Positions 18,160-34,075 of a stretch of 64,000 bases of DNA are shown piece by piece. Made by a program: the position numbers and the translations under genes. Position 1 is the stretch's first letter; every line of letters begins with the position of its first letter. Origin of the DNA: an uncultured delta proteobacterium (lineage in GTDB: Bacteria > Desulfobacterota > Desulfobaccia > Desulfobaccales > 0-14-0-80-60-11). The notes under the pieces were generated by a model, which had not been told where the DNA came from, searched no databases, and was given only the letters and a program-made list of their open reading frames with translations. The stretch spans positions 1,888,001 to 1,952,000 of the forward strand of contig CAWETI010000003.1 in assembly GCA_963812015.1 (NCBI GenBank), written 5' to 3'.

Positions 18160-20124
18160 TCACCTGGGTCCCCCCTTACGCCGCCCCCGGGTTTTTGCAA
18201 AAGTCTGATAGATAGCCGGGGGCACCGAAGTGAAGCTGACCAGGATTTCGCACCGGTTCCCCTCCTGGTGCTTCACCTCGATAACCTTGCCATAGATAGA
18301 GCCCGGCATCGGTTCTTCATTCTCATCCAGAAACGTCAGGCGAACATCCTCCCAGGCTTCCAGGTTGCCCTCCGACGTCACCCGGGCGGCGGTGTCGCAC
18401 AGATGCGTCACCCAGGCCGTTCCGGTGGCGTAGGTGACAATCTTGTCCTTGATATGATGGATCTGGACCCGCTTCCTGGCCGGCAGCTTCGTAAGCTTAT
18501 CCGACTTGTCTCTCAGCCGGATATGGTAAGGGGGGCCGATGCCCCGGACGTCATAGAGCGTGGCCCGGCCCGGCACCCCCTTCATCTCCACCTGCTCCAC
18601 ACTACCCACTTCCACCAGGTCCTGCACCCGACTGTAGGTGGCGGCGCTGATCAGCACCTGCCCCGCCAGGGCACATCCTTCCATGCGGGACGCAAAGTTC
18701 ACGTTGGAACCCACAACGCTATACTTAGTCCGCCTTTCCGAGCCGATGTTGCCCACCACCACCGAGCCGGTGTTCACCCCGATGCCCATGGCCAGTCGGG
18801 GCAGGCCGTCGGCCTCGTTGGCGGCATTGATCTCATCCATGGCCGCCTGCATCTCCAAGGCGCAGGCGATGGCCCGGGCCGGGTGGTCTTCCATGGGTTC
18901 GGGGGCGCCGAAGAAGGCCAAGATGCCGTCCCCCAGAATTTCGTCGATGACGGCGTGGTTGTCCAGGAGAATTTCGATCATTTTGCTCAAATAGCGGTTG
19001 AGAAAGGTGATGACCTGCTCCGGGGCCATGTCGGCGATGATGGCGGTGAAACCCCGCAAATCCGACATGATGAGGGAGACCTCCCGGATCTCGCCGCCCA
19101 TTTCCAGAGCCCCTTCGGATTCCAACAGGCGCTTCACCACTTCCTGGGTGACATAGCGCCCAAAGGTGTCCCGGATGAAATCCCGCTTTTCGATATATTC
19201 GGTGAGTTGTTGTCCCAGTTCATTGAAGGAATGGGCCAGATCCGCCACTTCCCGCACCCCCCGTTCCCGCACGGCCACGGCGAAGTTGCCTCCCCCCACC
19301 TGGCGCACCCCGTCCCGGAGGTGAGAGATGGGACGGGAGATGGTCGCGGCAAACCACAGCCCCGACAAGATCCCAACGAGGCCCAGGGCCAGGCCGGCAA
19401 AGAGGCCTCCGATCATGACCTCCCGGTTGAGAACGGCATAATGCGCCTCGATCTGCTGTTTGGCCTGCACCATGGCGATCTGGGAGGATTCTTTGATCCC
19501 CTGTTGCGCCGGCAGGAAAAATTCATCCAGGTTGACGATGGCCGCAATGATGAACGGGGTGCCGGGGACATGGACCCGTACCGAGAACCGCTGCCTCTCC
19601 TTTTTGTCCTTATCGAAAAACGTAAAAAAACCCTGCACATAGTTTTCCTTAAAGGAACGCTTAATCAACTCCGTGGTCTCCGGGTATTCCTTCTCCCAAT
19701 CCAGCTGGTTTTTACCTTCCACGTTTGGGTCCGGGTGAAACAGTATGTAACCGCGCTGGTCATATAAATCCGTATAGCCCGCTGAACCATGCGGGGTGTA
19801 AATCGGCTGGATGGCAATAGCCCTTATCCGGGGATCCTGGCGCAGTTTGGCGTAATCATCGGTTTTTTTTCCTTTCAAGACATAGGCCAGTTCCCGAGCC
19901 ACCTCTTCGGCCTTGTCCTTGACGACGTATTCGCCCATCACGGTGAGGACTCGATCTGAATGTTGTATGTTCGTTGCGGTTACGTTATTTAGGGCCTGGT
20001 CGGCGATTTTGATGGCGCTCTTGGTGAGCCCGCCCAGCACATGGGCGTTGATGAACCAGGCGCCGACTATTAATATGGCAATAAGCGCCAGATAAGACAT
20101 GATCATATAGGTGCGCAGTCGCAT
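18160..20124 (-). CDS. Second membrane class III cyclase: TM-Cache-TM-HAMP-cyclase + PilZ-like tail
   Basis: ILFHPD Cache motif, SDLRGFT, IDEILGDG, RTKYSVVG and VNFASR; close paralogue of 14851-17016 from the HAMP onward. Confidence 0.92.
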   Translation of the reverse strand: MRLRTYMIMSYLALIAILIVGAWFINAHVLGGLTKSAIKIADQALNNVTATNIQHSDRVLTVMGEYVVKDKAEEVARELAYVLKGKKTDDYAKLRQDPRIRAIAIQPIYTPHGSAGYTDLYDQRGYILFHPDPNVEGKNQLDWEKEYPETTELIKRSFKENYVQGFFTFFDKDKKERQRFSVRVHVPGTPFIIAAIVNLDEFFLPAQQGIKESSQIAMVQAKQQIEAHYAVLNREVMIGGLFAGLALGLVGILSGLWFAATISRPISHLRDGVRQVGGGNFAVAVRERGVREVADLAHSFNELGQQLTEYIEKRDFIRDTFGRYVTQEVVKRLLESEGALEMGGEIREVSLIMSDLRGFTAIIADMAPEQVITFLNRYLSKMIEILLDNHAVIDEILGDGILAFFGAPEPMEDHPARAIACALEMQAAMDEINAANEADGLPRLAMGIGVNTGSVVVGNIGSERRTKYSVVGSNVNFASRMEGCALAGQVLISAATYSRVQDLVEVGSVEQVEMKGVPGRATLYDVRGIGPPYHIRLRDKSDKLTKLPARKRVQIHHIKDKIVTYATGTAWVTHLCDTAARVTSEGNLEAWEDVRLTFLDENEEPMPGSIYGKVIEVKHQEGNRCEILVSFTSVPPAIYQTFAKTRGRRKGGPR

Positions 20125-20322
20125 GGCTACTCCGGTGTATCCTTAATCCCGCTGAAAACGGCGCGGCCGGGAACCCTCGGCGGAATTATACAACGTTTCG
20201 GATTAAATGGAGGAAAGATTCAATATGCGAGCAGACTTAAGGAATCGGAGCCGCCCGGCGGCCCGGATGGACGATTATGAAAGAGCTTGCCGGGTCGGCA
20301 CCTTGGCACCGGCCGCTGGGGC

Positions 20323-21642
20323 TCAGGGGTAGATCCGATCCAAAAGGCGGGGAAAGGGGATGGTTTCCCGGACATGGTGCAGGCCGCAGAGCCAGGCCAC
20401 CAGGCGCTCGATGCCCATGCCGAAGCCGCTGTGGGGCACGCTGCCGTAGCGGCGCAGGTCCAGATACCATTCCAGGGGTTCCTGGGGCAGGTGATGCTCC
20501 CGGATGCGGGCCAGCAAGAGGTCCAGGTCAGCGATGCGCTGGGAGCCCCCGACAATCTCGCCGTAGCCCTCCGGGGCCAGCATGTCCACGCAGAGGGCTA
20601 GCCGGGGATCGACCGGGTCCGGTTCCATATAAAAGGCCTTGGCCTCCTTGGGGTAGCGGTGCACCAGCACCGGCCGGGGAAACAATTGGGAGAGCACGGT
20701 CTCCTCGTCTCCACCCAGATCTTCGCCCCAGGCCAGGTCTTTGCCGTGTTGTTTCAGGTGTTCCAGGGCCTGGGCATAGCTGAGGCGGGGGAACGGTCCG
20801 GCCACTTCCTCAAGGGGGGCGATATCCCGCTCCAGGAGACGTAGCTGCGCCGCCTGGCGATCCAACACCCTGAGGACCACGGCCCGCACCAGGCCCTCGG
20901 CCAATTCCATCATATCATCCAGGGTAAAGAAGGCCGCCTCGGCCTCCACCATCCAGAACTCCGTCAGGTGGCGACGGGTCTTGGATTTTTCCGCCCGGAA
21001 GGTCGGCCCGAAGCAATACACCCGGCCCAGGGCCATGGCCGCGGCCTCGAGATAGAGCTGGCCGCTCTGGGACAGATAGGCCTTGCCCCGGTCCAGATAG
21101 TCCGTCTCGAAGAGGCTGGTGGTACCCTCGCAGGCCGTGGGAGTAAGGATGGGGGTGTCCACCAGGACGAACCCCCGTTCGTGGAAAAAATCCCGGCAGG
21201 CCCGGCAGACCTCGTCCCGGATCCTCAGGATGGCCTGCTGCCGGGGAGACCGGAGCCACAGGTGGCGCCGATCCATGAGAAAGGCCACCCCGTGTTCCTT
21301 GGGGGAAATGGGATAGTCCGGGGCGATCTGCAGGGGTATCACCCGGGTCACTTCCAGCTCAAAGCCCCCGGGAGCCCGGGGCTCGGCCCTGACCCGGCCT
21401 TCCAGGATCAGGGAGGTTTCCAGGGTAAGCATCTCGAATTGCTGAAAATCTTCCTCAGGGAGGTTCCCCTTGACCAGTACCCCCTGGGCCAACCCGGTGC
21501 CATCCCGGACCACCAGAAAGCGGACCTTGCCGCTGGAACGCAGATGGTACACCCATCCGCGCAGGGACACGGCCTGTCCGACATGCTGGGCCAGGGAAGC
21601 GATGTCAACCACCGGTGCGGTGGTGGTAATAGTTGGCGGCAT
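20323..21642 (-). CDS. asnS: Asparagine-tRNA ligase
   Basis: AYLSQSGQLY, FGPTFRAEKSKTRRHLTEFWM and WYLDLRRYGSVPHSGFG. Confidence 0.96.
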   Translation of the reverse strand: MPPTITTTAPVVDIASLAQHVGQAVSLRGWVYHLRSSGKVRFLVVRDGTGLAQGVLVKGNLPEEDFQQFEMLTLETSLILEGRVRAEPRAPGGFELEVTRVIPLQIAPDYPISPKEHGVAFLMDRRHLWLRSPRQQAILRIRDEVCRACRDFFHERGFVLVDTPILTPTACEGTTSLFETDYLDRGKAYLSQSGQLYLEAAAMALGRVYCFGPTFRAEKSKTRRHLTEFWMVEAEAAFFTLDDMMELAEGLVRAVVLRVLDRQAAQLRLLERDIAPLEEVAGPFPRLSYAQALEHLKQHGKDLAWGEDLGGDEETVLSQLFPRPVLVHRYPKEAKAFYMEPDPVDPRLALCVDMLAPEGYGEIVGGSQRIADLDLLLARIREHHLPQEPLEWYLDLRRYGSVPHSGFGMGIERLVAWLCGLHHVRETIPFPRLLDRIYP

Positions 21643-21807
21643 AGGATGGCGAACCTTATCGGTCAACTTGCCAAAATCGTTATGAATTGTAATGGGCAAA
21701 GGCTCTCGGGGCCTTGCCCTTGCCGTCCAGGAAGACAGCTTCTGCGGCCCGCTTTCGCCAGGCGCCCCACGGTGGCCTCAAGGCCTACAGCTCACTGCTT
21801 ACTCCTC

Positions 21808-22755
21808 CTACAACATGATCTTGATGTGAGCCTTTTCCCGCAAGGTCTTGACCCAATCGCCAAAATACTTATTCATTTCCTGTTGGGTCACTATTCTGCG
21901 AATTTCCGGGGCCGCCTCTTCAAAGGAGCGGGCCTCGCCGCTGCGGCGGCCCAAAATTTGAATCAATTGATAGCCTTCCGGGGTTTCCACCGGGGCCAAA
22001 TCGTTCATTTTCAACTGGCCCAGGAATTCGGCCAGCCGCGGGTCCAGGTCGCTTTGGTTCACAAACCCCACATCCGTAGGTTTGAGTGAGAGTTTCCCGG
22101 CCGCCGTCGCCAGAGACTCACCCCGTCTCACATCCGTGATGATGGTCTCCGCGTTCTTTTTGGCTTCCTCTTTTTGCTGGCTGGTGGCCCCCGGCGGGAA
22201 CGGCAGCTTTAAGGTCATGAGATGCACCTGGTTGCCGCTTTTCTTGAATCTTTCCTCATAGAGGCGGCGCACCTCGGCGTCACTGACCATAACCTTTGTC
22301 CCCACCACCACCGGCAGCAATCGCTCCTGAATCATTTGATCCGCAATCTGCTGCCTGAATTCTTTTATGGAAAGCCCGGCCTGGGACAGTCCCTTGGCCA
22401 GGGTTTCGTCATCGGGAATATTATTGGACTGCTTGAAGCGAGCCAGGGATTCATCCACTTCTTTGTCGGTTACCTTGATGCCCCGGCGATTGGCCTCGGC
22501 TTTGGCCAGTTTGCGGTCAATCAAGGCCTCCAGCATCTCGCGCTCCATTTTCTTCTCAACTGCCCCTCCAGATTTAATCCCTGACTGGGCCTGAATGGTC
22601 TTGCCCATGTTTTGCAACTCGGACATGGTGATGATTTCGTTGTTAACTTCGGCTACAATCCGGTCCACCACCTCAGCCATACCCGTCCCCGTCTGCGCCA
22701 ATTGGATCAGGACGGCAACCAGAGCGATGAGTAAAGGCCCCTTAATTTTTATCAT
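21808..22755 (-). CDS. surA: SurA-family periplasmic chaperone/PPIase
   Basis: VVDRIVAEVNNEIITMSEL N-terminus; C-terminal LREKAHIK; located downstream of mfd. Confidence 0.8.
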   Translation of the reverse strand: MIKIKGPLLIALVAVLIQLAQTGTGMAEVVDRIVAEVNNEIITMSELQNMGKTIQAQSGIKSGGAVEKKMEREMLEALIDRKLAKAEANRRGIKVTDKEVDESLARFKQSNNIPDDETLAKGLSQAGLSIKEFRQQIADQMIQERLLPVVVGTKVMVSDAEVRRLYEERFKKSGNQVHLMTLKLPFPPGATSQQKEEAKKNAETIITDVRRGESLATAAGKLSLKPTDVGFVNQSDLDPRLAEFLGQLKMNDLAPVETPEGYQLIQILGRRSGEARSFEEAAPEIRRIVTQQEMNKYFGDWVKTLREKAHIKIML

Positions 22756-22759
22756 CGAT

Positions 22760-25700
22760 TTAACCCTCTACCTCTGCATTAACAAATGTCTCGACTTCTT
22801 TCAAGCAGTTTTGCAACTGCGTGAGTACCGGGCCGGTTTCCGGGAGTTGAATCCGCAAGGTTTGATCCGGGGTGAGGCGAAAGGTCTGGGGCCGCTTCTT
22901 GAGGATGCCGATCAAACGGCCCAGGTCCAGGCGCTCCGGGTGGGCAAATTGCAGCACCGCACAATTGTCCTGCAGGTCCAAACGCTTGATCCCCAATTGC
23001 CGCAACTGGTGTTTAGCCCGCACCACCTCCAGGAGATTGCGCCCCTCCTGAGGCAGGGGCCCGAAGCGGTCAAGAAATTCCGCTTCCAGTTCCTTCAGCA
23101 TCTCAGGCGTCAGGCGACCCGAGAGACGCCGGTACAGGGCCAGGCGCTGCTGCACATCGGGGACATAATCTTCGGGCAAATAAGCGGCCAGGGGCAGATG
23201 GATTTCCGGGTCCGGCGTCGCCTCCTCCATCGGTTCCCCTTTGTATTCCCGAATGGCCTCCTCCAACAGTTGGAGATAGAGTTCGTAGCCCACCTCGGCT
23301 TGGTGGCCCGATTGGGCCTGTCCCAGCAGGTTGCCGGCCCCCCGGATCTGGAGGTCGTGCATGGCTATCCTGAAGCCGGAACCCAGTTCCGTGAACTCCA
23401 TCAGGGCCTTGAGGCGCTTCTGGGCCTCATTGCTCAGGGCCGCCTCGTCCGGGACCAGCAGATAGGCGTAGGCCTGGGACTGGCTGCGTCCCACCCGGCC
23501 TCGCAACTGATAGAGCTGGGCCAATCCCATGGTATGGGCCCGGTTGATGATAATCGTGTTGGCCGAGGGAATATCCAGCCCGGCCTCAATGATGGCGGTG
23601 CACACCAGGACACTTACCTCCCGCCGCCAGAAGCGCACCATGACCCGTTCCAGTTCCTTTTCCGCCATCTGGCCATGGGCCATGGCCACCCGGGCTTCCG
23701 GCACCAGTTCCTGGACGTACCGGGCCCAGGTGGCCAGACTCCGCACCCGGTTGTGCACGAAGAAGACCTGGCCACCCCGGTCCAACTCCCGGCGGATGGC
23801 GGACTGGATCACCGCGGCCTCCGGCAGGCAGACATAGGTGCGGATGGCCCGGCGGTTCTCCGGCGGGGTGTTGATCAGGCTCAACTCCCGGATGCCGGTG
23901 AGGGATAACTGCAAGGTGCGGGGAATGGGGGTGGCCGTGAGGGTGAGGACATCCACAGTGCGCCGCCACTCCTTCAGCCGCTCTTTCTGCCGGACCCCGA
24001 AGCGCTGCTCTTCGTCCACGATGACCAGTCCCAGGTCCTGGAACGTGACGTCTTTGGACAGCAGACGATGGGTCCCGATCAGGATGTCCACTTTTCCTTG
24101 GGCCAGGTCCGCCAGGATCCGTTTCTGCTCCGCCGGCGACTTGAACCGGCTCAGGGCCCTTACCTCCAGAGGAAAATGAGCCAGGCGATGCCGGAAGGTG
24201 TCGTAGTGCTGCTCCGCCAACACCGTGGTGGGCACCAGCATCGCCACCTGTTTGCCATCCATGGCGGCCTTGAACGCGGCGCGCACCGCCACCTCGGTTT
24301 TGCCGTAGCCCACGTCCCCGCAGATCAGGCGGTCCATGGGTTTCTCCGAGCCCATGTCCAACAGCACGTCGCCGATGGCCTGCAACTGGTCCGGGGTCTC
24401 CTCATATTCGAAGGTGGCTTCAAACTCGCGGTAGACCGGGTCCGGGGGCGAAAAGTGGTGCCCCGGCAGCACCCGGCGCAGGGCATAAAGCTCCACCAGT
24501 TCCAGGGCGATCTTTTCCACCGCCTTTTTTACCCGGGTTTTGGCCCGTTCCCAGGACTTGCCTCCCAGACGCTCCACCCGGGGGCTCACCCCTTCCACCC
24601 CCAGGTATTTCTGCACCAGGTTGAGGCGGTCCACGGGGAGATAGAGCCGGTCCCCGCCCTGGTATTCCAGCTCCAAAAAGTCGTTGACTTCGCTGCCCAC
24701 CGTGAGTTTGATCAGGCCCCGGTAGATGCCAATGCCGTGGTCCAGGTGAACCACGTGATCGCCTTCCGTCAGGTCGGCCAGGGAAGTGAGATCCTGGAGC
24801 GGCGGGGATTCCTTGCGCCGCCGCCCTTCCGGCCGGAATCCCAGGGCTTCATCTTCGGTGAGGACAATCAGGCCTTCCGAGAGCAGCCGAAACCCCCCGG
24901 TCAATTCCCCGGCGGTAATTTCCACCCGGTTCCCGCGCCCCCAGGCGGGGGCCGGGGTGAACTCCACCTCCAGGCCCTCTTCCGTCAGCAGGCGGGCCAG
25001 GCGCTCGGCCCGATGCCGGTTCAAGGATACCAGGATGACGTGGAACCCGGAGCTGCGCCATTCCCTCAGGTGCTGCGCCAGGGCCGGGATTAACCGTCCG
25101 GTTTCACCCCCGGCCTGGACCAGTTCCTCGGCCAGGTGGTCGTTTTTCTCCACCTGGAAGGTGATATCCTGGTCCTGATCCGGATGGCCCCAGAGTAAAG
25201 GGGGGCAGAAGATCTGGGCGAAACGGCGGCATTGCTCTTCCCAGGGGGTTTGATCCAGCCAGCCCTGGGGTACGCCGGCCGCGGCTTCCTCCTGCTTCTG
25301 CAGTTCCTGCCCCAGGATCAAGGGGTCCCATTCCACCACCACGGTGTCCGGGGGTAGGAGGTCCCACAGGGTCGGAGGATGGTCGTAAAACTCCTCCAGA
25401 TGACGTTCGATCCGGGGGAAATGCCGGCCCTCGTGGACGTGGCGCCAAAATTCCGGATCCTGGCGGCGGCTGCGCCGGGCCAGAACGCGCTCCCGGACGG
25501 CTTCGTCCAACACCACTTCACTGGCCGGAAGCACCAGCAGGTCGTCCAGCGTCCCCTGGGAACGCTGGGTGCCAGGATCGAAGCGGCGGATGGACTCCAC
25601 CTCATCCCCCCAGAACTCCAGGCGCACCGGTTGGGGATAGAGCGGCGGAAATAGGTCGATGACCCCGCCCCGGACGCTGAACTCCCCCCGTTCCTCCACC

Positions 25701-26299
25701 ACGGGTCGGCGCTCATAGCCGCCCTCCAAAAGGTGGGCCAGCAACTCCGGGCGTTCCAGACTTTCCCCCGCCACCACGTAGGCCAAAAGGTCCCGAATCC
25801 GGGCCTCCGGGGGCAGCTTCTGCCGCAGGGCCAGGGCCGGTGCTACAATGAGGCACGGCTCCCGGGCAGTCAGGGCCACATAGGCGGCCGCCATACGGGC
25901 GCAGCTCACGTCAGCGTCGAAGCTCAGTTCCCGAAATGGCAAGACCTCGTGGGCCGGGAACATGAGGACTCGGGACTCCGGGCCGGTGGCCCGGACGACC
26001 TCTTCCCCCAGAAAAAAGATCAAGTCCTTAAAAAAATGTTCATGAAAATTGACATTGGGGGTAACCAGGAGGACCGGGCGCTGGATTTGTTGGAAGAGCC
26101 GGGCCAGGATATAAGCCCCGGCTCCGGGAGTGAGCCCCTGGAGATATGCCGGCCGGGATTCCCGGGAGAGAGCCACAGCCAGATGCTGCGCTGCCGCGCT
26201 TAAAGATAACGTGCCTACCACTTTATAACCATATCCCGGCAAGGGAATTTTTTCAAGAAGCCCTTGATTCCCCCGTCTGGGCAAGCTCTCCTGCGTCAT
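22760..26299 (-). CDS. mfd: Transcription-repair coupling factor
   Basis: GEFSVRGGVIDLF, VVHLDHGIG, CGDVGYGKTEVA, DEEQRFG, LTATPIPRTL and QLRGRVGR; start uncertain. Confidence 0.97.
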   Translation of the reverse strand: MTQESLPRRGNQGLLEKIPLPGYGYKVVGTLSLSAAAQHLAVALSRESRPAYLQGLTPGAGAYILARLFQQIQRPVLLVTPNVNFHEHFFKDLIFFLGEEVVRATGPESRVLMFPAHEVLPFRELSFDADVSCARMAAAYVALTAREPCLIVAPALALRQKLPPEARIRDLLAYVVAGESLERPELLAHLLEGGYERRPVVEERGEFSVRGGVIDLFPPLYPQPVRLEFWGDEVESIRRFDPGTQRSQGTLDDLLVLPASEVVLDEAVRERVLARRSRRQDPEFWRHVHEGRHFPRIERHLEEFYDHPPTLWDLLPPDTVVVEWDPLILGQELQKQEEAAAGVPQGWLDQTPWEEQCRRFAQIFCPPLLWGHPDQDQDITFQVEKNDHLAEELVQAGGETGRLIPALAQHLREWRSSGFHVILVSLNRHRAERLARLLTEEGLEVEFTPAPAWGRGNRVEITAGELTGGFRLLSEGLIVLTEDEALGFRPEGRRRKESPPLQDLTSLADLTEGDHVVHLDHGIGIYRGLIKLTVGSEVNDFLELEYQGGDRLYLPVDRLNLVQKYLGVEGVSPRVERLGGKSWERAKTRVKKAVEKIALELVELYALRRVLPGHHFSPPDPVYREFEATFEYEETPDQLQAIGDVLLDMGSEKPMDRLICGDVGYGKTEVAVRAAFKAAMDGKQVAMLVPTTVLAEQHYDTFRHRLAHFPLEVRALSRFKSPAEQKRILADLAQGKVDILIGTHRLLSKDVTFQDLGLVIVDEEQRFGVRQKERLKEWRRTVDVLTLTATPIPRTLQLSLTGIRELSLINTPPENRRAIRTYVCLPEAAVIQSAIRRELDRGGQVFFVHNRVRSLATWARYVQELVPEARVAMAHGQMAEKELERVMVRFWRREVSVLVCTAIIEAGLDIPSANTIIINRAHTMGLAQLYQLRGRVGRSQSQAYAYLLVPDEAALSNEAQKRLKALMEFTELGSGFRIAMHDLQIRGAGNLLGQAQSGHQAEVGYELYLQLLEEAIREYKGEPMEEATPDPEIHLPLAAYLPEDYVPDVQQRLALYRRLSGRLTPEMLKELEAEFLDRFGPLPQEGRNLLEVVRAKHQLRQLGIKRLDLQDNCAVLQFAHPERLDLGRLIGILKKRPQTFRLTPDQTLRIQLPETGPVLTQLQNCLKEVETFVNAEVEG

Positions 26300-26340
26300 C
26301 CAGAATTGGCCATAGCTTCCAAATCAGGCGGCTGCAAGAC

Positions 26341-26453
26341 TGTTAGGTCCTCCAAATGGTCATTCTGAGCCTAGCGGCTAATCTATTTTTCTAACTATAT
26401 TATGGATAATACCCTTCATTCAGGATGACAAAAACCTCTTTTCCAACACCCTG
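26341..26453. repeat. Degenerate MITE-like dispersed repeat, copy B
   Basis: TGTT...GGTCATTCTGAGCCTAGC...CAGGATGACAAAA...TTTCCAACA; related to 4121-4223. Confidence 0.55.
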
Positions 26454-26784
26454 TATTGAGCCAATTGGAACATTCGCCCAAAATTTCTTCCGATAAATGG
26501 TTTATTTATCATACCTTCCCCCCCAGCTACACCGATAGAAAGAAAAAAGTGGTCTATGGTTAGATGTCTGCACCTTTAGGCAAAATTTTTCTACCACCTT
26601 TGCATTTCGCACCTCCTCAGCCTCATTCAGGCGACTCTGACCCTCTGTATGGCAGCACACCTCCCCTGGACGGCTTCTCGCACATGCACTTCAACTAGCT
26701 GTATTCTCTTATTTATTCAGAATAGCGGCATATTTCCCCCAGGGCGTCGCCTTCCCGAATAAAAATCTGCCGGGCCCATCTGAC

Positions 26785-26800
26785 TGGCAACAAACTTGCA
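26785..26800 (+). promoter_or_regulatory. Sigma54 promoter upstream of the csrA-fliW fusion
   Basis: TGGCAACAAACTTGCA, an exact GG-N10-GC match. Confidence 0.7.
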
Positions 26801-27017
26801 TAACAAATTTAAGAATACTGCGCCAAAACGCCCCAGACACGGACGGAGGCGTGGGCGTGTGAGATGTTTGCGAAGTATTGCCTTAATGCATCCCGGTCTT
26901 GATCGGTCAGACAACCGCCGGGGGAAATCAACCAAGGCGGGAAGCCGGGGAATTCATGCGGGCCGGTTAACCTATCGGTTATCCACGCTAACCTGGCAAC
27001 GCCACAGGGGTCATACG

Positions 27018-27779
27018 GTGCTTATTTTAACCCGCAAGATCGGTGAAAGTATTCTGATAGGCGACAATATCCGGGTGGTGGTTTTGGAAGTGCGCGGCCG
27101 ACAAATCCGGCTGGGCATTGAGGCCCCTACGGATATTGTGGTGCTGAGAGAGGAAATCGCTCAACGCCTCGCCGATGAAAACCTTCAGGCGGCCAATTCC
27201 CAGTTCCAGGACGTACAGCAGGCGCTCAAGTCCTTGGAACCCAAGGTAGTTTGCCGCAAGCCCTTGCGGCCAAGCCAGCCTGGATCTCCCACCGTCATCA
27301 TCGACTCCAAGGCCTTAGGCCAGGTAACGGTGCCGGAAGACCGCATCATTACCTTCGCCGCGGGACTGCCCGGATTTCCCGATTTCCAGCGGTATGCCCT
27401 GCTCAATGGCCAGGTGGCACCGCCGTTCTATTATCTCCAATGCGTAGATAACCCCTCCCTGGCTCTTATAGTGACCGACCCCACCACCTTAGTGCCGGAT
27501 TATCAATCCAAAAACGGCGGGAGCACCTTAAAGGAATTGTGCGCTCAAAGCTACGAGGACTTGCAGGTCCTGGTAACCCTGACCATACCCCCTGGCCGCC
27601 CCCGGGAAATGACCGCGAACTTGATGAGTCCGCTCCTGATTAACCCGGAACTGCGTTTGGGCAAACAGGTAGTCATCGAAAAGTCGCCGTATTCCCATCA
27701 GTATCCGGTGTTATCTTTGAGACCAGGCTGCCAGCCCCAAGGGAACGGGAACAGTAATTCATTGAATGAAGGCTCATGA
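27018..27779 (+). CDS. csrA-fliW: CsrA-FliW fusion protein (253 aa)
   Basis: GTG start after AGGGG. CsrA part: [37 protein letters not shown]...REEI...EN. After a Pro-rich linker, FliW part in the same frame: FAAGLPGF...PFYYLQ...[12 protein letters not shown]...GKQVVI...Y. Confidence 0.92.
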
Positions 27780-28423
27780 TGTTCTCTTTTGTGAACATCT
27801 TTCCTAACCTGATCCCCTATCACGATTACCCCCCACACCTCCTAACCTTAAAAATCGATTAGGGGGGCCCCGAACCCGCCTGGTTGGTTTTCGCCAAAGG
27901 GAACGAGCCTTCCCTTCGGCGCCCCTTGACCGAAAAACTTCCCGGCTCGCCGCCCCTGCCAACGACTGCCCCGGCGCCATCATCCCACGGGTAAGGGGCC
28001 GCCCCGCCTCGATTAGCTTGGGGATTATTCACCAGGCAAAGTCATCGGGGAAAAAGTCTTCTCGAAATTCCGCCTGACCCCGTCAATGGCCGCTGGTAAG
28101 CCACCAGCTGAACCTAAGGTGACCGGGCCTGGGGAAATAAGCCATCCCCTGATTCTTTTTCTTGGGCTTTATTATTGATGGAGGTTTTGATATATTTATT
28201 AGGCAATATCAATTGCTGAGAGTGCGGTTCTTGCGATGGTAACCCCTCATTGTGTAAAGGGAAACGCCAACTGAGATTTTTTTCCAGCGTCCATCAATTA
28301 TATTGACATTTTCCTTTGTGCGCATATATTATGGCCTGGAAAGGAGTTTGTTGGCTTTTTCTCATTTACTCCACTGGGGGAGGAGAAGCCGGTAATCAAC
28401 CTTAGCAAAAAGGAGGAAGGTGT

Positions 28424-28762
28424 ATGCGGTCTAAATTGTTGGTCGGGTTGCTGGTGGTAGTGGTCGCGGTATTTTTCGTCTCTTCCCTCGCTACGGCTCA
28501 AAAGTTGGGAAGCGCTAAGTTGCTGTGCGTCTCCAAGAAAGAGCTGAAGGGCGAAGAGACTGTGGCTTCGTGCATGGCCAAAGGGGAACGGTTTGCCATC
28601 GTTGATCCTTATGGCATGGTGCGCATCTTAAGCCCGGAAGAAATAGAACTGACCAAGGCTTTTAATCCCAAAGCCTTCGAGACCCGGGCCTTTGGTATGA
28701 GATATCAGCAGTTGGCTCCGGCGCTGCCGCCCATGCCGTCTTTGACCCAGGAAGCTCCGTAA
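28424..28762 (+). CDS. Exported hypothetical protein with two Cys
   Basis: AGGAGG RBS, signal peptide, TTGACA/TATATT promoter at 28303-28330, terminator downstream. Confidence 0.75.
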   Translation: MRSKLLVGLLVVVVAVFFVSSLATAQKLGSAKLLCVSKKELKGEETVASCMAKGERFAIVDPYGMVRILSPEEIELTKAFNPKAFETRAFGMRYQQLAPALPPMPSLTQEAP

Positions 28763-28796
28763 GTCTATTTGCCAACTTCACTTCAGTATGCAGATG

Positions 28797-28829
28797 GCCC
28801 CCAAAGTGCGCTTTGGGGGCTTTCTCTTT
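28797..28829 (+). terminator. Intrinsic terminator
   Basis: GCCCCCAAAG-tgcg-CTTTGGGGGC followed by TTTCTCTTT. Confidence 0.75.
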
Positions 28830-28845
28830 AACATGAGAGGTTTTT

Positions 28846-29571
28846 ATGCTTGAGATCGATGACCTCTGGGTAAATATCGACGACAAGGAGGTGCTCAAGG
28901 GCATCAACCTCCGGGTGCCCGTGGGGGAGACCCATATCCTCTTTGGCAAGAACGGCTCGGGCAAATCCAGCCTGCTCATGGCCATCATGGGTTTCGAACG
29001 CTATCAGGTGAAGCAGGGCCGGATCAGCTTCCTGGGCCAGGATATCACCCAACTGCCCACCTATGAGCGGGCCCGCCTGGGCCTGGGCCTCTCCTTCCAG
29101 CGCCCCCCCACTATCCGGGGCGTCAAGACTGCGGACCTCTTGCGGGTCTGCTCCCGGGGCGTCGTCGCCCCCGAGGCCCTGGCCGCGGTGTATGATTTTA
29201 CCCCGTTTCTGGAGCGAGAGGTCAATTACGGCTTTTCCGGGGGGGAGATCAAGCGCTCCGAACTCCTGCAATTGCTGGCCCAGAACCCCAAGATGGTGCT
29301 CCTGGACGAACCGGAGTCGGGGGTGGACCTGGAGAACCTCCAGGTAGTGGGGAAGATCATCGCCCACCTGCTCCAAAAGGAGCGCCGCCGCCAGCACCGG
29401 GAAAAATCCGGCCTGATCATCACCCACACCGGCTTCATCATGGATTACGTCAACGCCGATCGGGCTTACATCCTGGGCGACGGCCGCATCTGCTGCCACG
29501 GCAACCCCGGGGAGCTCCTGCACGATATCAAGAACTTCGGTTACGAGGAATGCGCCAAATGTCGCAGATAA
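28846..29571 (+). CDS. sufC: SufC-like ATPase of a minimal Fe-S assembly system (SmsC)
   Basis: GKNGSGKS, FSGGEIKRSE, LLDEPESGVD and a C-terminal CxxC (CAKC). Confidence 0.9.
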   Translation: MLEIDDLWVNIDDKEVLKGINLRVPVGETHILFGKNGSGKSSLLMAIMGFERYQVKQGRISFLGQDITQLPTYERARLGLGLSFQRPPTIRGVKTADLLRVCSRGVVAPEALAAVYDFTPFLEREVNYGFSGGEIKRSELLQLLAQNPKMVLLDEPESGVDLENLQVVGKIIAHLLQKERRRQHREKSGLIITHTGFIMDYVNADRAYILGDGRICCHGNPGELLHDIKNFGYEECAKCRR

Positions 29572-30767
29572 AAAACCGGGCCGAGGAGAGTCGGCATAAA
29601 AAAGCCGCCTTCGGGTCTGATCTTAACCTGGAGGAGTTTTCCCGTCAGGGGGGCGCCTGGGAATACGACCCGGACTACCGGCAGTTTTCCCCGGAGGAAC
29701 GGAGCCGCCTGCTCACCACCGGCATCGAGCTCACTGACGAAGATCATGCCGCCACCTTCCTCCAGGCCGACAAGGCCATCGTCCACTGTCAGACCCGGCA
29801 ACCGGGGGTTGAAGTCCTGCCCATCACCGAAGCGGTGCGCCGCCACGGCTGGGTCAATAACCTCCTCTGGGGCCTGGTGGCGGTGGATGCCGACAAATAC
29901 ACCGCCGCCGCCGAGCTGGAGTTGGACAACGGGTATTTCATCAGGGCCCTCCAAGGGGCTCAAATCGCCCAGCCGGTGGAATCGTGCCTCTACCTGCGCA
30001 CCGACCGGTTTGCCCAACACGTGCACAACCTGGTGGTGGTGGAAGAGGGGGCCTCGCTTCACATCATCACGGGGTGCGCCACCCACCCCGGGGTCCGCTC
30101 CGGCCTTCACATCGGGGTCTCGGAATTCTACGTCAAGAAAGGCGGGCAGCTCACCTTCACCATGATCCACAACTGGGGCGAGGACGTCCATGTGCGCCCC
30201 CGCACCGCGGTCATGGTGGAGGAAGGGGGCCGCTACATCTCCAACTATATCCTGCTGCGGCCGGTGAAGACCGTGCAGATGTATCCCACCGTCACCTTGA
30301 ACGGCGCAGGCGCCGTAGCTCGCATCCAGTCCATCCTTATCGCCCATCCCGGCGGCGAGCTGGACGTGGGCGGCCGGGTGATCCTCAAGGCCCCCCACAC
30401 CCGGGCCGAAATCATCGCCCGCACCCTGGCCATCGGCGGCACCAGCATCGCCCGGGGCCACCTTGTCGGCCTGGTGCCGGACATCAAGGCCCACTTGGAA
30501 TGCCGGGGTCTCATCCTGGGCACCGGGGTGGTCTACGCTATTCCCGAACTGGAGGGCCGGGCGGCCGGGGTGGACATGTCCCATGAAGCCGCGGTGGGCA
30601 AGATCGCCGCCGAGGAAGTGGAATACCTCATGGCCCGGGGTCTGGACGAAGATGAAGCCGTCTCTACCATCGTCCGCGGCTTCCTCAACGTCAAGATCGA
30701 GGGCCTGCCCGCGGCCCTGGAGGAAGAAATGGAGCACGCTATCCAGGAAACCGGCAAGGGGCTGTGA
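29559..30767 (+). CDS. sufB: SufB/SufD-like scaffold of a minimal Fe-S assembly system (SmsB)
   Basis: IITGC, HLECRGL, PELE and SHEAAVGKIA...EYLMARG; overlaps the ATPase stop. Confidence 0.9.
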   Translation: MSQIKNRAEESRHKKAAFGSDLNLEEFSRQGGAWEYDPDYRQFSPEERSRLLTTGIELTDEDHAATFLQADKAIVHCQTRQPGVEVLPITEAVRRHGWVNNLLWGLVAVDADKYTAAAELELDNGYFIRALQGAQIAQPVESCLYLRTDRFAQHVHNLVVVEEGASLHIITGCATHPGVRSGLHIGVSEFYVKKGGQLTFTMIHNWGEDVHVRPRTAVMVEEGGRYISNYILLRPVKTVQMYPTVTLNGAGAVARIQSILIAHPGGELDVGGRVILKAPHTRAEIIARTLAIGGTSIARGHLVGLVPDIKAHLECRGLILGTGVVYAIPELEGRAAGVDMSHEAAVGKIAAEEVEYLMARGLDEDEAVSTIVRGFLNVKIEGLPAALEEEMEHAIQETGKGL

Positions 30768-30863
30768 GGTGACGGATATTCGAGGAGAGGTCCAGAGGCC
30801 GAAGAGGCCGAGGGCGGCCGGCTCATCCGGAAAATCCCCGTTGGCCGGTTGAGGCGGCAGGAA

Positions 30864-30906
30864 GAAATATTGCGGGGCACGGCGACGCCGTGCCCCGCAA
30901 TATTTC
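30864..30906. repeat. Perfect 21-bp inverted repeat (REP-like, possible bidirectional terminator)
   Basis: GAAATATTGCGGGGCACGGCG-A-CGCCGTGCCCCGCAATATTTC between convergent genes. Confidence 0.85.
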
Positions 30907-30928
30907 AGGACGGGGCGGCCCGGGCCGT

Positions 30929-31336
30929 TTACTTCGCCGGCGCCGGGCCTTTCACCGGAATGATTAGGTTGTCCCAGCCCAGCCTGCGGCTCAATCCTGA
31001 GCTGTGCGTCATCAGGCTGGTGAGAAACCAGCGCGACTGCCCCTCGGGGAGGGTGAGCAGCTGGAACCGGGCTTCATAAACCACAGGTTTTTGGTCCTTT
31101 TCGCTGGGGTTGGTGATGAGCACATAGGCTACCTGGGTGGCGGAGTTCTCCCCGGCCTTATAAAATCCATAGAATTCCGCCACCTTACAAAAGTTGGCGT
31201 TCCAGTTATCCAGGGTGTGCTTGGCCGCCGCCGCCGTCAACGGCGAAGCCTGCGGCGAAGAAGGAAAGGCGCAGCCCAGAAAACAACCCAGCAGGAGCAT
31301 CATTGCCGCCAAGCGGCACCAGCCCGACACCTTCAT
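30929..31336 (-). CDS. Putative lipoprotein
   Basis: AGGAG RBS; lipobox-like FLGC. Confidence 0.7.
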   Translation of the reverse strand: MKVSGWCRLAAMMLLLGCFLGCAFPSSPQASPLTAAAAKHTLDNWNANFCKVAEFYGFYKAGENSATQVAYVLITNPSEKDQKPVVYEARFQLLTLPEGQSRWFLTSLMTHSSGLSRRLGWDNLIIPVKGPAPAK

Positions 31337-31490
31337 GCCCTTCTCCTCCTTTGCCGGCATCGTTGAGAGCGCCTCCGGTTCCGGCCTCCAGCCATCCACG
31401 CAGGCGCGTTATCGCCGCCATAAAAAGATTATGCCCACCGCGGCGCAAGGCTGAACCAGAAAACCTTCTGCCTTCGGGGTTGGGCTTGCT

Positions 31491-31943
31491 TCATTGCTTC
31501 AGCAGCCCTGCTTCCTGGAGCCAGCGTTTTACCTGCTCGAAGGCATCCCGCCCCTGGGCCACCAGGTTGCCTTGAGGACTGAAAATCATGAAAAACGGCA
31601 CCTGCCGGATATTATGCTGCTGCGCCAGGGGCGAGCGCCAGTCAATCCCCTGGACATTCGGCCGGTTAATGTTGACTTTCTTAATGGCCAGGTCCGGGCG
31701 CTTGGCGGCCAGCTGTTGCATGAGGGGGGCCAGGCGGACGCACGGCGGGCAATAAGGGCTGTAGAAATCGATCAGGGTGGTTTTCCCCGGGGTCAACAGG
31801 GATTTAAGGTCCAGGGTCTCGCCGCCGTTGCCGGCATTGGCATCCGCGCCCGCCCCGGCCCAGACGCCGGAGGCCAGGAGCCCCAGAGACAGGATGGCCG
31901 CCAAGACCAGCGACTGCCGGATAAATTTGATGGGGCGCGCCAT
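31491..31943 (-). CDS. Exported thioredoxin-fold protein
   Basis: Signal peptide; DFYSPYCPPC; cis-Pro motif VP. Confidence 0.85.
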   Translation of the reverse strand: MARPIKFIRQSLVLAAILSLGLLASGVWAGAGADANAGNGGETLDLKSLLTPGKTTLIDFYSPYCPPCVRLAPLMQQLAAKRPDLAIKKVNINRPNVQGIDWRSPLAQQHNIRQVPFFMIFSPQGNLVAQGRDAFEQVKRWLQEAGLLKQ

Positions 31944-31978
31944 AGCCTTTACATAGTGCCTTACCTGATAGTTGTCAA

Positions 31979-32863
31979 TCATTTTCCCGCCGTCCCCCCG
32001 GACTCGGTATTCAGGATCAGGGGCATTCCGTCCCGCCCCCCGATGATGATGGTTTTGCTGTTTTGGGAGTCGGCCAGGGCCCGGGTGGTTTCGATGCCTT
32101 TCCAGCGTAGCAACTGGTCCGACAGTCCCTGGGAGATGATCCTCTGGAAGTCCTGGATTCCCTGGGCTTCGATCCGCTTGCGCTCCGCCTCCTGGCGCTC
32201 TTTGTCCAGGACAAACCGCATCTGTTGGGCCTGCTGGTCCGCAGCCAGCTTGGCGTTGATGGCTTCCACCACCAGCTTGGGCAGATCGACTTTACGCAGC
32301 AGGATGGTCTCCACGACTATCCCCCGCTTCCCCAGGTTCCCTTCCAGGTCCCGAAAAATTTCGCTGGAGATCAGTTCCCGGCTGGAGGTATACAGGTCCT
32401 TGGCTTCGTGATTGACGGTAATACCCCGGATAGCGGCCCGGAATTGCGGGTTGACCACCACCGCCTCATAATTGGGCCCCACCTGCCGGTAAACGTTGGC
32501 CGCCTCAGCCGATTTCAGGTGATAGAGGCAAGAGACCTCCAGGGCAACGTTGAGCCCTTCCTTGGAGGGCGCCTCGGCGTGCTCGAAGACCTCCTTGGTA
32601 CGGACGCTCATGAGTTCCATGTTGGCCAGGGGGTTGACCAGGTGCACCCCTTCGGGGATGGTGCCGTACACCTTCCCTAAGAGTACCAGGACCCCGACAT
32701 TGCCCGGGGGCACCACCTTGGCCGTGGATACCGCCACGGTCACCGCCAGGACCAGGATGGCCAGGACATAGCGGATTTGCGGGAACTTCTGGAAAGCCGG
32801 CACGTTGTGTCCCAGGACCACCAGGGCCAGGGCAATCAGTACTCCCAACAGGACCAAACTCAT
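31979..32863 (-). CDS. Prohibitin/SPFH (band 7) membrane protein
   Basis: VPPGNVGV, EGVHLVNP, SKEGL and QEAERKRIEAQG. Confidence 0.92.
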   Translation of the reverse strand: MSLVLLGVLIALALVVLGHNVPAFQKFPQIRYVLAILVLAVTVAVSTAKVVPPGNVGVLVLLGKVYGTIPEGVHLVNPLANMELMSVRTKEVFEHAEAPSKEGLNVALEVSCLYHLKSAEAANVYRQVGPNYEAVVVNPQFRAAIRGITVNHEAKDLYTSSRELISSEIFRDLEGNLGKRGIVVETILLRKVDLPKLVVEAINAKLAADQQAQQMRFVLDKERQEAERKRIEAQGIQDFQRIISQGLSDQLLRWKGIETTRALADSQNSKTIIIGGRDGMPLILNTESGGTAGK

Positions 32864-33031
32864 AGTTTCCTCCATCACCCGGAATCGAGGCTGCCGGGTG
32901 AGCCAAAGGTCAGGCTGCGGTCAAAGGGTTAACGGCAATGGGCAGAACGGGGCCGGCAACCGCATGAAGCAGAGGGGGCCGTCCCCATACCACTCCCTTC
33001 CCCGAGGGCGCCGCCGCCTTCGGGGTCGCGC

Positions 33032-33658
33032 CTATTTCTTCAACAGGCGGCTCCGGGAGCGGCCCACGTTCTGAAACACCGCTTGAAAGTCGCGATACAG
33101 GGTCTTATTGTGCCGAACCCGGTGACACTTTTTCAGATAGCGCTGAGGGTCGGGGTTGTCGGCCAAAAGATCCAGGCCTTCCCAACCCCCCGGCCGGGGA
33201 AAGGCGTAATACGGATATTCCTTGGGAATGCCGCGCACATAGGTCACCTGGGGGATCACCCACTCCAGCCGAGCCTGATAGAGCCGGTGCATGCCGTCGT
33301 TGATGAGCAGGGCCACCGTGCCGTCGGCCTCAAAGGACTCCTCCACCATGGGCGGGTAAAGATCGTAGACGACTTCTTCTCCGTCGGCCAGGCGCACCGT
33401 GTAGGTGACATAGCCGTCGAGCCGGAACAGATCTACCCCCCAGGCAGCCAGGCTCCAGCGTAATTCCTGGGTTTTGCGCAATTCCTGGAGCCAGATATAA
33501 TTCTGCGGCGGATGGAGGCAATTGGTGTGAATCTGCTCCAGGGTGATCAAAGCCTGCGAATAAATCAGGACATCTGTCCTTTCCAGGAGGGGTACCTGTC
33601 TCAGGCAACTAATTAATGCTTCCGGGGAATGTTTTTCCAGGGCGATAATGTCCATCAT
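33032..33658 (-). CDS. Hypothetical protein with ParB/Srx-like motif
   Basis: LHPPQ...PPMV...LLINDGMHR resembles the ParB/Srx core. Confidence 0.65.
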   Translation of the reverse strand: MMDIIALEKHSPEALISCLRQVPLLERTDVLIYSQALITLEQIHTNCLHPPQNYIWLQELRKTQELRWSLAAWGVDLFRLDGYVTYTVRLADGEEVVYDLYPPMVEESFEADGTVALLINDGMHRLYQARLEWVIPQVTYVRGIPKEYPYYAFPRPGGWEGLDLLADNPDPQRYLKKCHRVRHNKTLYRDFQAVFQNVGRSRSRLLKK

Positions 33659-33796
33659 GGTGAACGTATCCCGTTAAAAGGTTTAAGAATGAGAATGTTC
33701 AGGACAGGAGCCGGCGGTCCCGTTGATATTACCATCATCAAACCGGATGTGGGGAAAAATTGTGCGGGGCGGGGACAAAAAATGGGCTAAAAATCA

Positions 33797-33833
33797 AAGG
33801 TTCCCAACCCCTGGGGCAGGGGCCGGGAACCTT
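33797..33833 (-). terminator. Probable terminator
   Basis: AAGGTTCCC...GGGAACCTT inverted repeat. Confidence 0.55.
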
Positions 33834-33856
33834 GGTTTATCTTCACATCCTCCGGG

Positions 33857-34075
33857 TTAACAGTTGCCCCGGAGGAACCGAGTAGGCGGACTCAACAGGA
33901 ATGGCCCGAACCAGTCCTGGACAATGAAGCCGAAGTTGGGCTCTTCCGGCTGGGGCGCGTCTCCGAGACCCGCCTCGGTGTTCAAAAGTTCGATAAAACT
34001 CTCAGCCAGAATCTCCTCGGGGAGAGATTCGGGCAACCAGACTGGAGCGTATTCTTCTTTGCCGATGTATGCCAT
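33857..34075 (-). CDS. Small acidic hypothetical protein (72 aa)
   Basis: GAAGGA RBS, ATG at 34075, terminator downstream. Confidence 0.6.
   Translation of the reverse strand: MAYIGKEEYAPVWLPESLPEEILAESFIELLNTEAGLGDAPQPEEPNFGFIVQDWFGPFLLSPPTRFLRGNC

Follow-up and report, generated by a model that had tools for sequence, protein, structure and literature searches.

What remains for the CsrA antagonist FliW to do when it is joined to CsrA in a single polypeptide chain and the bacterium has no flagellum? The question is posed by one gene of an uncultured delta proteobacterium of the order Desulfobaccales, lying in a 64,000-nt stretch of DNA (the window: positions 1,888,001 to 1,952,000 of contig CAWETI010000003.1, assembly GCA_963812015.1; coordinates below are those of the window). 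An initial annotation, made from the sequence of the window, had read this gene as CsrA fused to FliW, outside any flagellar cluster. That the csrA-fliW fusion is real and functional is virtually certain. It stands out by its persistence, under selection, in a clade that lacks the flagellum.

The reading frame is unbroken from a GTG at 27018 to a TGA at 27777-27779 and specifies a 253-residue product. Pfam places CsrA (PF02599) at residues 1-51 (27018-27170; E = 9.7e-22; profile positions 1-51 of 53; 77.1 bits against a family cut-off of 27) and FliW (PF02623) at residues 111-231 (27348-27710; E = 2.2e-34; profile positions 1-122 of 122; 118.3 bits against 25). Both NCBIfam CsrA equivalogs score above their cut-offs (NF002469, 81.4 against 73; TIGR00202, 80 against 70.1); all six NCBIfam FliW equivalogs match residues 94-233 yet stay below theirs (the best at 114 against 130). 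The FliW domain has relatives of known structure in the Protein Data Bank (2aj7 and 5dmb_A). Frame, Pfam domains and NCBIfam CsrA models bear out the initial claim of a complete CsrA and a complete FliW on one protein. The linker between them (residues ~62-92) has no in-frame stop codon; TTG occurs in it twice, at residues 73 and 83, in neither case after a Shine-Dalgarno sequence, so that the further claim of no internal stop, ribosome-binding site or start is right in substance. At the other end, a longer ORF beginning at TTG 26796 is not supported, the region 5' of 27018 aligning among 16 congeners with indels and in no frame, and the N-terminus MLILTRK is conserved among the same 16 in that upstream-region alignment.

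The fused gene encodes a genuine, conserved single polypeptide and is not an artefact. A metagenome protein search returned 325 homologues at E ≤ 1e-3 (139-443 aa), and all 120 homologues among the matches listed have both PF02599 and PF02623 (65-92% identity; 232-291 aa). ORF structure was checked at 54 loci in 83 genomes of the order, whose genera are numbered here, g1 being the genus of the window. A single fused ORF is present in 34 genomes of three genera (16 in g1, 3 in g4 and 15 in g8), and none of these 34 has an interrupted copy. The gene is fused in each of the 16 g1 genomes that have it (two more, 87% and 56% complete, lack it), in 3 of 3 in g4 (the gene of a fourth genome is cut by a contig end) and in 15 of 15 in g8. 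The initial annotation had allowed that two separate genes in all close relatives would speak against a fusion. This fails in the genus itself; it is true of more distant genera of the same family, where the two-gene state shows how the fusion arose.

The junction is also crossed by contigs from two RNA libraries, prepared from wetlands in separate studies. Both contigs belong to relatives: X10 spans 27028-27831 (805 nt, 71 substitutions, no gaps) and X17 spans 27061-27508 (448 nt, no gaps). A third RNA-library contig covers 27065-27232 with 3 substitutions. Such contigs give neither strand nor level, and DNA carry-over is possible; those over the junction stay in frame across it and are a hint of expression. 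A DNA run, X2, from the same study as the probable source of the window, covers 26910-27211 and 27297-27455 without a difference and leaves 27212-27296 unbridged. Coverage of the junction, which the initial annotation had proposed as a check, is accordingly found in relatives; the junction of this particular strain is without independent DNA confirmation, because the X2 contigs do not bridge the linker.

The absence of a flagellum is a property of the genome (3.96 Mb in 6 contigs, 99.86% complete, 5.7% contamination) and not just of the locus. Searches for Flagellin_N, Flagellin_C, FHIPEP (FlhA) and Flg_bb_rod, each of them positive in 4 of 14 control genomes, found none of these families in it, and there are no flagellar genes within the window, in agreement with the initial statement that flagellin and flgKL are missing from it. 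The genome has one FliW, which is the fused gene, and two CsrA copies. Of the three partners of the known switch, flagellin, FliW and CsrA, the first is therefore absent, and with it the flagellin mRNA leader that CsrA would repress; nor does the gene stand beside late flagellar genes, as it does in flagellated relatives. The suggestion that the FliW ligand might be something other than flagellin can be sharpened: flagellin cannot be the ligand here, because the genome has no gene for it.

Within the order as a whole, 30 of the 83 genomes have flagellin, but none of the 34 with the fused gene does (g1, 0/17 plus the genome of the window; g4, 0/4; g8, 0/15); these genomes are kin, and its absence is a pattern on the tree rather than 34 independent cases. 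It was likewise not found in g2, g3, g9, g13 and g16, and is present in g5, g6, g7, g10, g11, g12, g14 and g15 and in 2 of 4 genomes of g17. FliW is retained without flagellin even where it is unfused, since the aflagellate genera g2, g3, g9 and g13 keep a separate fliW beside csrA. The sister genus g16 has kept csrA and lost fliW; fliW without csrA was never seen at the loci examined. Two genomes of g17, which belongs to a sister family (G080 and G082, loci L091 and L092, 99% complete), have a split csrA-fliW pair and no flagellin match while two congeners have flagellin, and may represent a second independent case of FliW outliving flagellin. In a phylum-wide sample of 301 genomes at least 90% complete, FliW and flagellin (E ≤ 1e-20) occur together in 113, FliW only in 20, flagellin only in 24 and neither in 144. 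Three of the 20 FliW-only genomes are of the genus of the window (its own genome included); of the other 17, at least 8 fall in genera in which a sampled sister has flagellin, and some may be assembly gaps.

What has been kept under these circumstances can be judged from substitution patterns (dN/dS values are medians of pairwise Nei-Gojobori estimates within a genus). They are 0.13 for CsrA, 0.50 for the linker, 0.27 for FliW and 0.70 for the C-terminal tail in g1; 0.20, 0.57 and 0.41 for CsrA, linker and FliW in g8; and 0.28, 0.43, 0.44 and 1.2 for CsrA, linker, FliW and tail in g4. On these estimates both domains are clearly under purifying selection in the fused genera. The corresponding values for CsrA and FliW in flagellated genera are 0.055 and 0.10 (g11), 0.067 and 0.20 (g12) and 0.11 and 0.16 (g7).

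Conservation extends to the residues that matter for function. CsrA L2, L4, R6, R44 and I47, in strands beta1 and beta5, which we take from E. coli CsrA mutagenesis to be the RNA-binding residues, are each present in 66 of 66 fused sequences. The C-terminal extension of CsrA, to which the initial annotation had drawn attention, is kept as a helix with N55 (65 of 66), and so are its contacts on the other side: FliW N201, K216 and Q217, each found in 66 of 66, correspond by alignment to 5dmb_A to N108, K123 and Q124 of Bacillus subtilis FliW. There, N108 and Q124, facing CsrA N55, are reported to be needed for binding and K123 for inhibition (10.1101/2020.07.02.184341).

Structure prediction gives a familiar dimer. 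The AlphaFold2 (AF2) monomer, made with a 66-row alignment, has a pLDDT of 79 and a pTM of 0.71; the linker is at 60-69 and the tail below 50, and the tail (residues 234-253) is probably disordered. The CsrA helix at 44-59 and a second helix at 63-71 are predicted confidently (block means 92 and 87). Prediction with two copies scored 0.57 against 0.00 for the best of 3 controls, a mark reached by 20 of 30 proteins solved as same-chain pairs and 1 of 23 solved as single chains, although the method may have learned solved CsrA dimers. Contact agreement between runs is at least 94%, the partner pLDDT is at least 75, and the confident inter-chain contacts join residues 1-48 of both copies, so that the predicted assembly is the classical strand-swapped CsrA homodimer. 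A prediction of the dimer had been proposed as a way of telling docking of FliW in cis from docking in trans; it delivers the CsrA-CsrA interface and, reporting inter-chain contacts only, does not distinguish the two.

The origin of the gene can be read from its surroundings. In the flagellated relative G063 the order is mfd (on the minus strand), flgF, flgG, flgA, flgH, flgI, a flgJ-like gene, flgN, flgK, flgL, csrA and fliW, and mfd and csrA lie 8.5-9.2 kb apart in all 4 flagellated genomes checked (G063, G025, G052, G027), against 0.7 kb here. The fused gene is very probably a relic of such a flagellar operon, and the mfd-csrA spacer would then be the deletion scar of a flg block of ~9 kb. 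The downstream side has been kept as well: the 112-aa ORF of the window comes after csrA-fliW in fused genomes as well as in G068, G027 and G056, which are flagellated, and in G068 sufC/sufBD genes also follow fliW, as they do here.

In flagellated relatives csrA and fliW are two overlapping genes. At the 15 loci where the pair is in different frames, the CsrA end reads W(R/K)xx before its stop codon, and fliW, which overlaps or abuts csrA, has its ATG 14 codons ahead of the domain. The start of CsrA and the FliW domain are 276 nt apart in 28 of the 34 fused loci and 273-279 nt in the others; the range in non-fused loci is 272-291 nt. Fused forms lack the csrA stop codon, and the ancestral fliW ATG is missing from all 16 g1 sequences. 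Two of the 3 g4 genomes still have the old fliW start, an ATG (Met) at residue 77, and in g8 a GGAGG precedes a TTG at residue 93 in 5 of 15 genomes. There are also loci at which csrA and fliW share a frame and are parted by one stop codon (L072 in G018, L076 in G068, L077 in G065) or by three (L079 in G046), with the spacing in G068 and G065 being the 276 nt of most fused forms; these four loci look like intermediates or reversals. A maximum-likelihood tree of CsrA plus FliW (53 rows), rooted on the sister family f2, unites the fused genera in one clade, g4+(g8+g1), and the fused state requires 1 change (support 87/83; 90% of 200 bootstrap trees). Flagellum-less but unfused g9, g3, g13 and g2 branch between this clade and the flagellated genera. 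The branching suggests that the flagellum was lost before the flg genes were deleted in place, and that fusion came last. The genus of the window and g4 retain the mfd side; in g8 the gene has been relocated. A flagellated genome of g12, G056, has two csrA-fliW pairs on different contigs (L097 and L098), with tip branches of 0.036 and 0.076 changes per column.

The element TGGCA-N6-TTGCA upstream of the gene, whose spacing and letters presumably fit the sigma54 -24/-12 consensus, stands 111-236 nt before the start codon in the 16 g1 genomes. It is the sole exact match in the window (0.27 expected; a match arose in 25 of 100 shuffled sequences). A promoter and terminator scan of 26200-28500 found no sigma70-like promoter before the fused gene. 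The element recurs at 9 of 15 g8, 0 of 3 g4, 1 of 1 g2 and 2 of 2 g13 loci, and within 700 nt of csrA at 1 of 14 loci from flagellin-bearing genera. The spacer between mfd and flgF in flagellated G063 (one genome) contains the identical motif, 75 nt 5' of flgF, and the element may be the old flagellar operon promoter, brought beside csrA by the deletion. The presumed 5' untranslated region (26812-27017) is ~205 nt long here, against ~100 nt in 9 of 16 congeners (compared with L045 and L047-L053), and in the window and six congeners unrelated insertions of 20-120 nt lie between the sigma54-type element and the Shine-Dalgarno sequence. A single-sequence fold of 26812-27035 is no stabler than shuffles (z -0.58), and an Rfam search of 20000-34000 at E ≤ 1 gave two chance-level small-RNA matches and no CsrB/RsmZ-like RNA.

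A mechanism can be outlined in which the sequence of evolutionary steps, the docking of FliW in cis, the auto-inhibition and a releasing ligand other than flagellin are all inferred. The ancestor would have had a csrA-fliW pair at the end of a late flagellar operon, flgF...flgL-csrA-fliW. With the flagellar genes lost and the flg block between mfd and csrA gone, csrA-fliW would have been left in place, and subsequent loss of the csrA stop and the fliW start would have created one ORF directly behind the sigma54-type promoter. Its product most likely forms the usual strand-swapped CsrA dimer, which would then carry two tethered FliW domains. Each FliW probably docks on the CsrA C-terminal helix at N55 through Q217, N201 and K216, as in the solved complex; once docked, it would keep RNA binding off by default. 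Antagonism of CsrA by its own tethered FliW is, on balance, what we consider probable. Release could be brought about by a protein or signal competing for the FliW surface, superimposed on sigma54- and enhancer-dependent control of synthesis. If there is release, it must come from a non-flagellin input, because flagellin is absent and both halves of the protein are still constrained; that a non-flagellin ligand releases RNA binding is nevertheless offered more tentatively than self-antagonism itself.

Two observations in other bacteria bear on this scheme. In B. subtilis, one FliW per CsrA dimer is reported to suffice for inhibition, the ratio being tightly set by translational coupling (PMC6529632); by analogy, the fusion can be seen as an extreme form of such coupling. 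As a precedent for a partner other than flagellin, FliW is reported to bind the sigma factor TcdR in non-motile Clostridioides difficile (PMC11898703). The second CsrA-like ORF (L100:3813-3974, in G000:C3, ~421 kb upstream of the fused gene) encodes 53 aa, with R44 kept and L instead of R at position 6, and many genomes of the order have comparable short matches to csrA alone. It is an unlikely target in trans of the FliW domain, because it ends at residue 53 and has no helix with N55.

Several observations weigh against this mechanism or parts of it. The predicted contacts listed are inter-chain and CsrA-CsrA only, and no result places FliW on CsrA. A permanent tether at two FliW per CsrA dimer might never release, one FliW per dimer being reported to suffice for inhibition in B. 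subtilis (PMC6529632), and no candidate for a releasing ligand was found. The Bacillales K123-D41 salt bridge has no counterpart, position 41 being V in 65 of 66 sequences. Constraint is about two-fold weaker in the fused genera than in flagellated relatives, and a set of sites invariant in eight flagellated genera varies in the fused forms (T97, F100, Q109, E130, H131, L138, W139, I187 and M198). T97 and F100 lie in the FliW N-terminal loop, which flagellin is reported to protect in hydrogen-deuterium exchange (PMC6070490). The variation suggests, in a small sample, a loss of the flagellin-binding constraint; relaxed constraint and variation at formerly invariant FliW sites together argue that some function has been lost in the fused forms. 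The sigma54-type element is not found in g4, nor in 6 of 15 g8 genomes, and RNA-library contigs also lie over 26714-26942, 5' of the expected start site; because they extend beyond that start, they do not confirm the promoter, and DNA carry-over is possible. Finally, the order of flagellum loss and fusion was read from a gene tree, for which the sister family was assumed as root, and not from a species tree.

Some of these observations would be accommodated by a FliW that no longer inhibits and has become a fixed accessory domain, acting on a permanently active CsrA to tune its specificity, stability or localisation, the fusion merely ensuring 1:1 assembly. A tether fixes stoichiometry and ends independent titration of FliW, the flagellin ligand has gone from the genome, and the partner of the Bacillales core salt bridge is absent (V41); purifying selection on both domains would suit any obligate two-domain protein. 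There is also a shift at position 204 (B. subtilis A111, in the CsrA-proximal cluster), which is S, C or T in 34 of 34 fused forms and G or A in 18 of 19 unfused ones. Such a cofactor is nonetheless rather unlikely: the N55/Q217 pair, N201 and K216 are kept as they are where FliW inhibits, and we know of no FliW that is not inhibitory, which counts against it. Moreover, the FliW of Geobacter sulfurreducens, encoded in the same csrA-then-fliW order, reportedly interacts with CsrA and influences its outputs (PMC13407953).

FliW might instead be the working part, engaging a new protein partner such as a transcription factor, with CsrA serving mainly as a dimerisation module or as a sensor of RNA load. 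The interaction with TcdR in non-motile C. difficile, as reported (PMC11898703), and the separate fliW retained next to csrA in aflagellate g2, g3, g9 and g13 can be cited in its favour. CsrA, however, is the more constrained half (0.13 against 0.27 in g1) and has kept all its RNA-binding residues; there is no fliW without csrA at these loci, and it was fliW that g16 dropped. We regard an arrangement centred on FliW as improbable.

More doubtful still is a rewiring of the flagellin loop in which the tethered FliW monitors how much of some non-flagellar protein is present in the cytoplasm, and CsrA represses the mRNA of that protein. The concrete candidate for such a client is the small, putatively exported protein encoded at 28424-28762, because its adjacency has been kept in flagellated and flagellum-less genomes and because its leader is conserved and has GGA clusters. 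A near-consensus sigma70 promoter (TTGACA-16-TATATT, within 28303-28423) precedes this 112-aa ORF. The leader of ~90 nt is conserved in four genera, flagellated and not, and contains three GGA clusters, near positions -86/-81, -45/-42 and -12/-9, of which the third falls on the Shine-Dalgarno sequence; judged by these motifs, it is a possible CsrA target. A single-sequence fold of the leader (28334-28432) is no stabler than shuffles (z 0.11). If such a loop existed, the protein would be a one-protein feedback controller for the secretion or assembly of a non-flagellar structure.

It is very unlikely that the fusion is a neutralised relic, in which free CsrA became harmful after the loss of flagellin, FliW was welded on to silence it, and the product, having no positive function, is slowly decaying. 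The two-fold relaxation of constraint relative to flagellated relatives would fit, as would the reported likening of the FliW-CsrA pair to a toxin-antitoxin module (PMC6529632). A silenced CsrA, however, would take inactivating changes neutrally, yet its dN/dS is 0.13-0.28 in the three genera against 0.7-1.2 in the tail, and the reading is disfavoured for that reason; in addition, no fused copy is interrupted, a dedicated, conserved putative promoter has been kept and RNA-library contigs exist. The notion of an assembly or sequencing artefact, or of separate CsrA and FliW products arising from an internal start within the ORF, can draw on the metagenome-type assembly with its contamination, on the stretch unbridged by X2 and on the two linker TTG codons, and is scarcely credible in view of the same single frame in 34 genomes and in the 120 proteins among the matches listed, of RNA-library contigs from different studies that cross the junction without gaps, of the lack of a Shine-Dalgarno sequence at either TTG and of the disappearance of the ancestral fliW ATG from all 16 g1 sequences.

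Features of the csrA-fliW locus and its neighbours
Feature	Position	Strand	Remarks
mfd (transcription-repair coupling factor)	22760-26299	-	Pfam UvrB_inter, CarD_TRCF_RID, DEAD, Helicase_C, TRCF; divergent upstream neighbour
mfd-csrA spacer	26300-27017	.	site of flgF-flgG-flgA-flgH-flgI-flgJ-flgN-flgK-flgL in flagellated relatives; synteny with G063 (L101)
sigma54-type -24/-12 element, TGGCA-N6-TTGCA	26785-26800	+	putative; invariant in 16/16 g1
Shine-Dalgarno-like AGGGG	27006-27010	+	7 nt 5' of the GTG start; purine-rich block conserved among 16 congeners
csrA::fliW fused gene	27018-27779	+	253 codons plus stop; single ORF in 34 genomes
CsrA domain, beta core and C-terminal helix	27018-27200	+	residues 1-61; R44 at 27147-27149; N55 at 27180-27182; Pfam and NCBIfam
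Pro-rich variable linker	27201-27293	+	residues ~62-92, from junction comparison; occupies the position that the CsrA tail, its stop codon and the start of fliW have in split relatives
FliW domain	27294-27716	+	residues 93-233; N201 at 27618-27620; K216 at 27663-27665; Q217 at 27666-27668; full Pfam profile
C-terminal tail, unconstrained	27717-27776	+	residues 234-253; pLDDT <50 for 235-253; dN/dS 0.70
112-aa ORF, no Pfam family	28424-28762	+	signal-peptide-like N-terminus; followed by ABC ATPase and SufBD-core genes; listed as a neighbour, without implying membership of the system

The neighbours named initially, mfd and an exported protein, are where they were said to be, the export of the latter being suggested by its hydrophobic N-terminus. 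The neighbourhood was also considered as a clue to function and rejected as such: no operon partner is common to all fused genera, and the g8 gene has moved. In the two g8 genomes viewed (L118:5982-9970 and L119:2782-6614), the fused gene follows msrAB and a pyridine-nucleotide-disulfide oxidoreductase, with a formate-dehydrogenase-like operon ~0.4 kb downstream; the molybdopterin subunit of the latter is split into two ORFs, possibly due to a selenocysteine TGA.

The single-chain CsrA-FliW architecture is not unique to this lineage; it is recurrent across families. The ESM Atlas has two clusters with it (68 and 89 members), and Thermodesulfobacteriota is the commonest phylum among the 14 members of known phylum. 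When 30 of the best 150 matches to the protein (from 1.84 billion representatives searched) were scanned with Pfam, 16 had CsrA followed by FliW, a 17th being the query's own representative, P0085; one had FliW followed by CsrA (P0195), 8 were FliW-FliW and 2 were tandem CsrA. Further fused clusters are P0131, P0133, P0137/P0271, P0147, P0153 and P0205, and the second fused family, P0271, was found on 152 contigs. Among the best 150, the tandem FliW-FliW representatives are P0129, P0136, P0141, P0144, P0145, P0161, P0185 and P0224, and the tandem CsrA representatives, P0225 and P0238, have four and two CsrA stretches. One further match, P0130 (2715 aa), aligns to the query in 21 short segments (the best to residues 110-146; E = 5.6e-35) without matching any Pfam family at E ≤ 1e-4. 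It may be an artefact, or else a giant protein composed of repeats of a FliW-like segment. The literature yielded no paper describing a natural CsrA-FliW fusion, the key 2011 phylogeny and 2016 mechanism papers, where a mention is possible, lying outside the coverage. The initial remark that no characterised example was known thus stands as regards print, but the architecture has been catalogued automatically and is present in other fused families. JGI labels the homologues of the fused protein 'flagellar assembly factor FliW', a name that is misleading for hundreds of such proteins.

The interest of the locus lies in what it may say about a pair of proteins thought to be well understood. FliW is the textbook protein antagonist of CsrA, a global RNA-binding regulator, and the two are understood only through flagellin; here a lineage has lost flagellin and the whole flagellum, yet kept both partners under selection and joined them in one chain. 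Self-inhibition, should it occur, would make the protein a natural single-chain construct in which to study the unclear allosteric step of FliW action, and would imply that CsrA receives some input other than flagellin. Were self-inhibition absent, FliW would have a function that goes beyond antagonism. In both cases the protein is a simple experimental object, one gene with no flagellar background, that bears on the roles of FliW and CsrA outside motility.

How does the fused protein compare with known systems? The closest mechanistic reference is the Hag-FliW-CsrA switch of B. subtilis and the corresponding Geobacillus thermodenitrificans complex (PDB 5DMB). The protein families are the same, 5dmb_A aligning with residues 97-229 and 5dmb_D with residues 2-66; shared features are the CsrA helix with N55, the FliW equivalents of N108, K123 and Q124, and co-expression at a fixed ratio. 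Unlike the B. subtilis switch, the present one is a single polypeptide and not two, in the order csrA-then-fliW and not fliW-then-csrA, with 2 FliW per CsrA dimer as against about 1, and without flagellin, a hag leader, flagellar genes or a counterpart of the D41 salt bridge. Geobacter and the present lineage were once both placed in the Deltaproteobacteria, and the G. sulfurreducens arrangement, flgJKLMN-csrA-fliW, closes a late flagellar operon with csrA followed by fliW (PMC13407953), as is also seen in the flagellated relatives. As described there, G. sulfurreducens CsrA has an extended C-terminus with N55, as here, and its FliW acts on non-motility traits (biofilm) (PMC13407953). The difference is that two genes in a flagellated organism correspond to a fused gene from whose side the flg genes have gone.

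The FliC-FliW-CsrA module of non-motile C. difficile clade 5 resembles the present case in outliving the flagellum and keeping regulatory roles, with TcdR reported as the FliW partner; there, flagellin is kept and the proteins are separate, whereas the present lineage lacks flagellin and has the two joined in one protein (PMC11898703). The other single-chain CsrA-FliW proteins share the domain order, except P0195, and likewise have the antagonist tethered to its target. They are 34-40% identical to the present protein, have shorter linkers and total 205-222 aa, and because of this low identity and these shorter linkers they probably represent separate origins.

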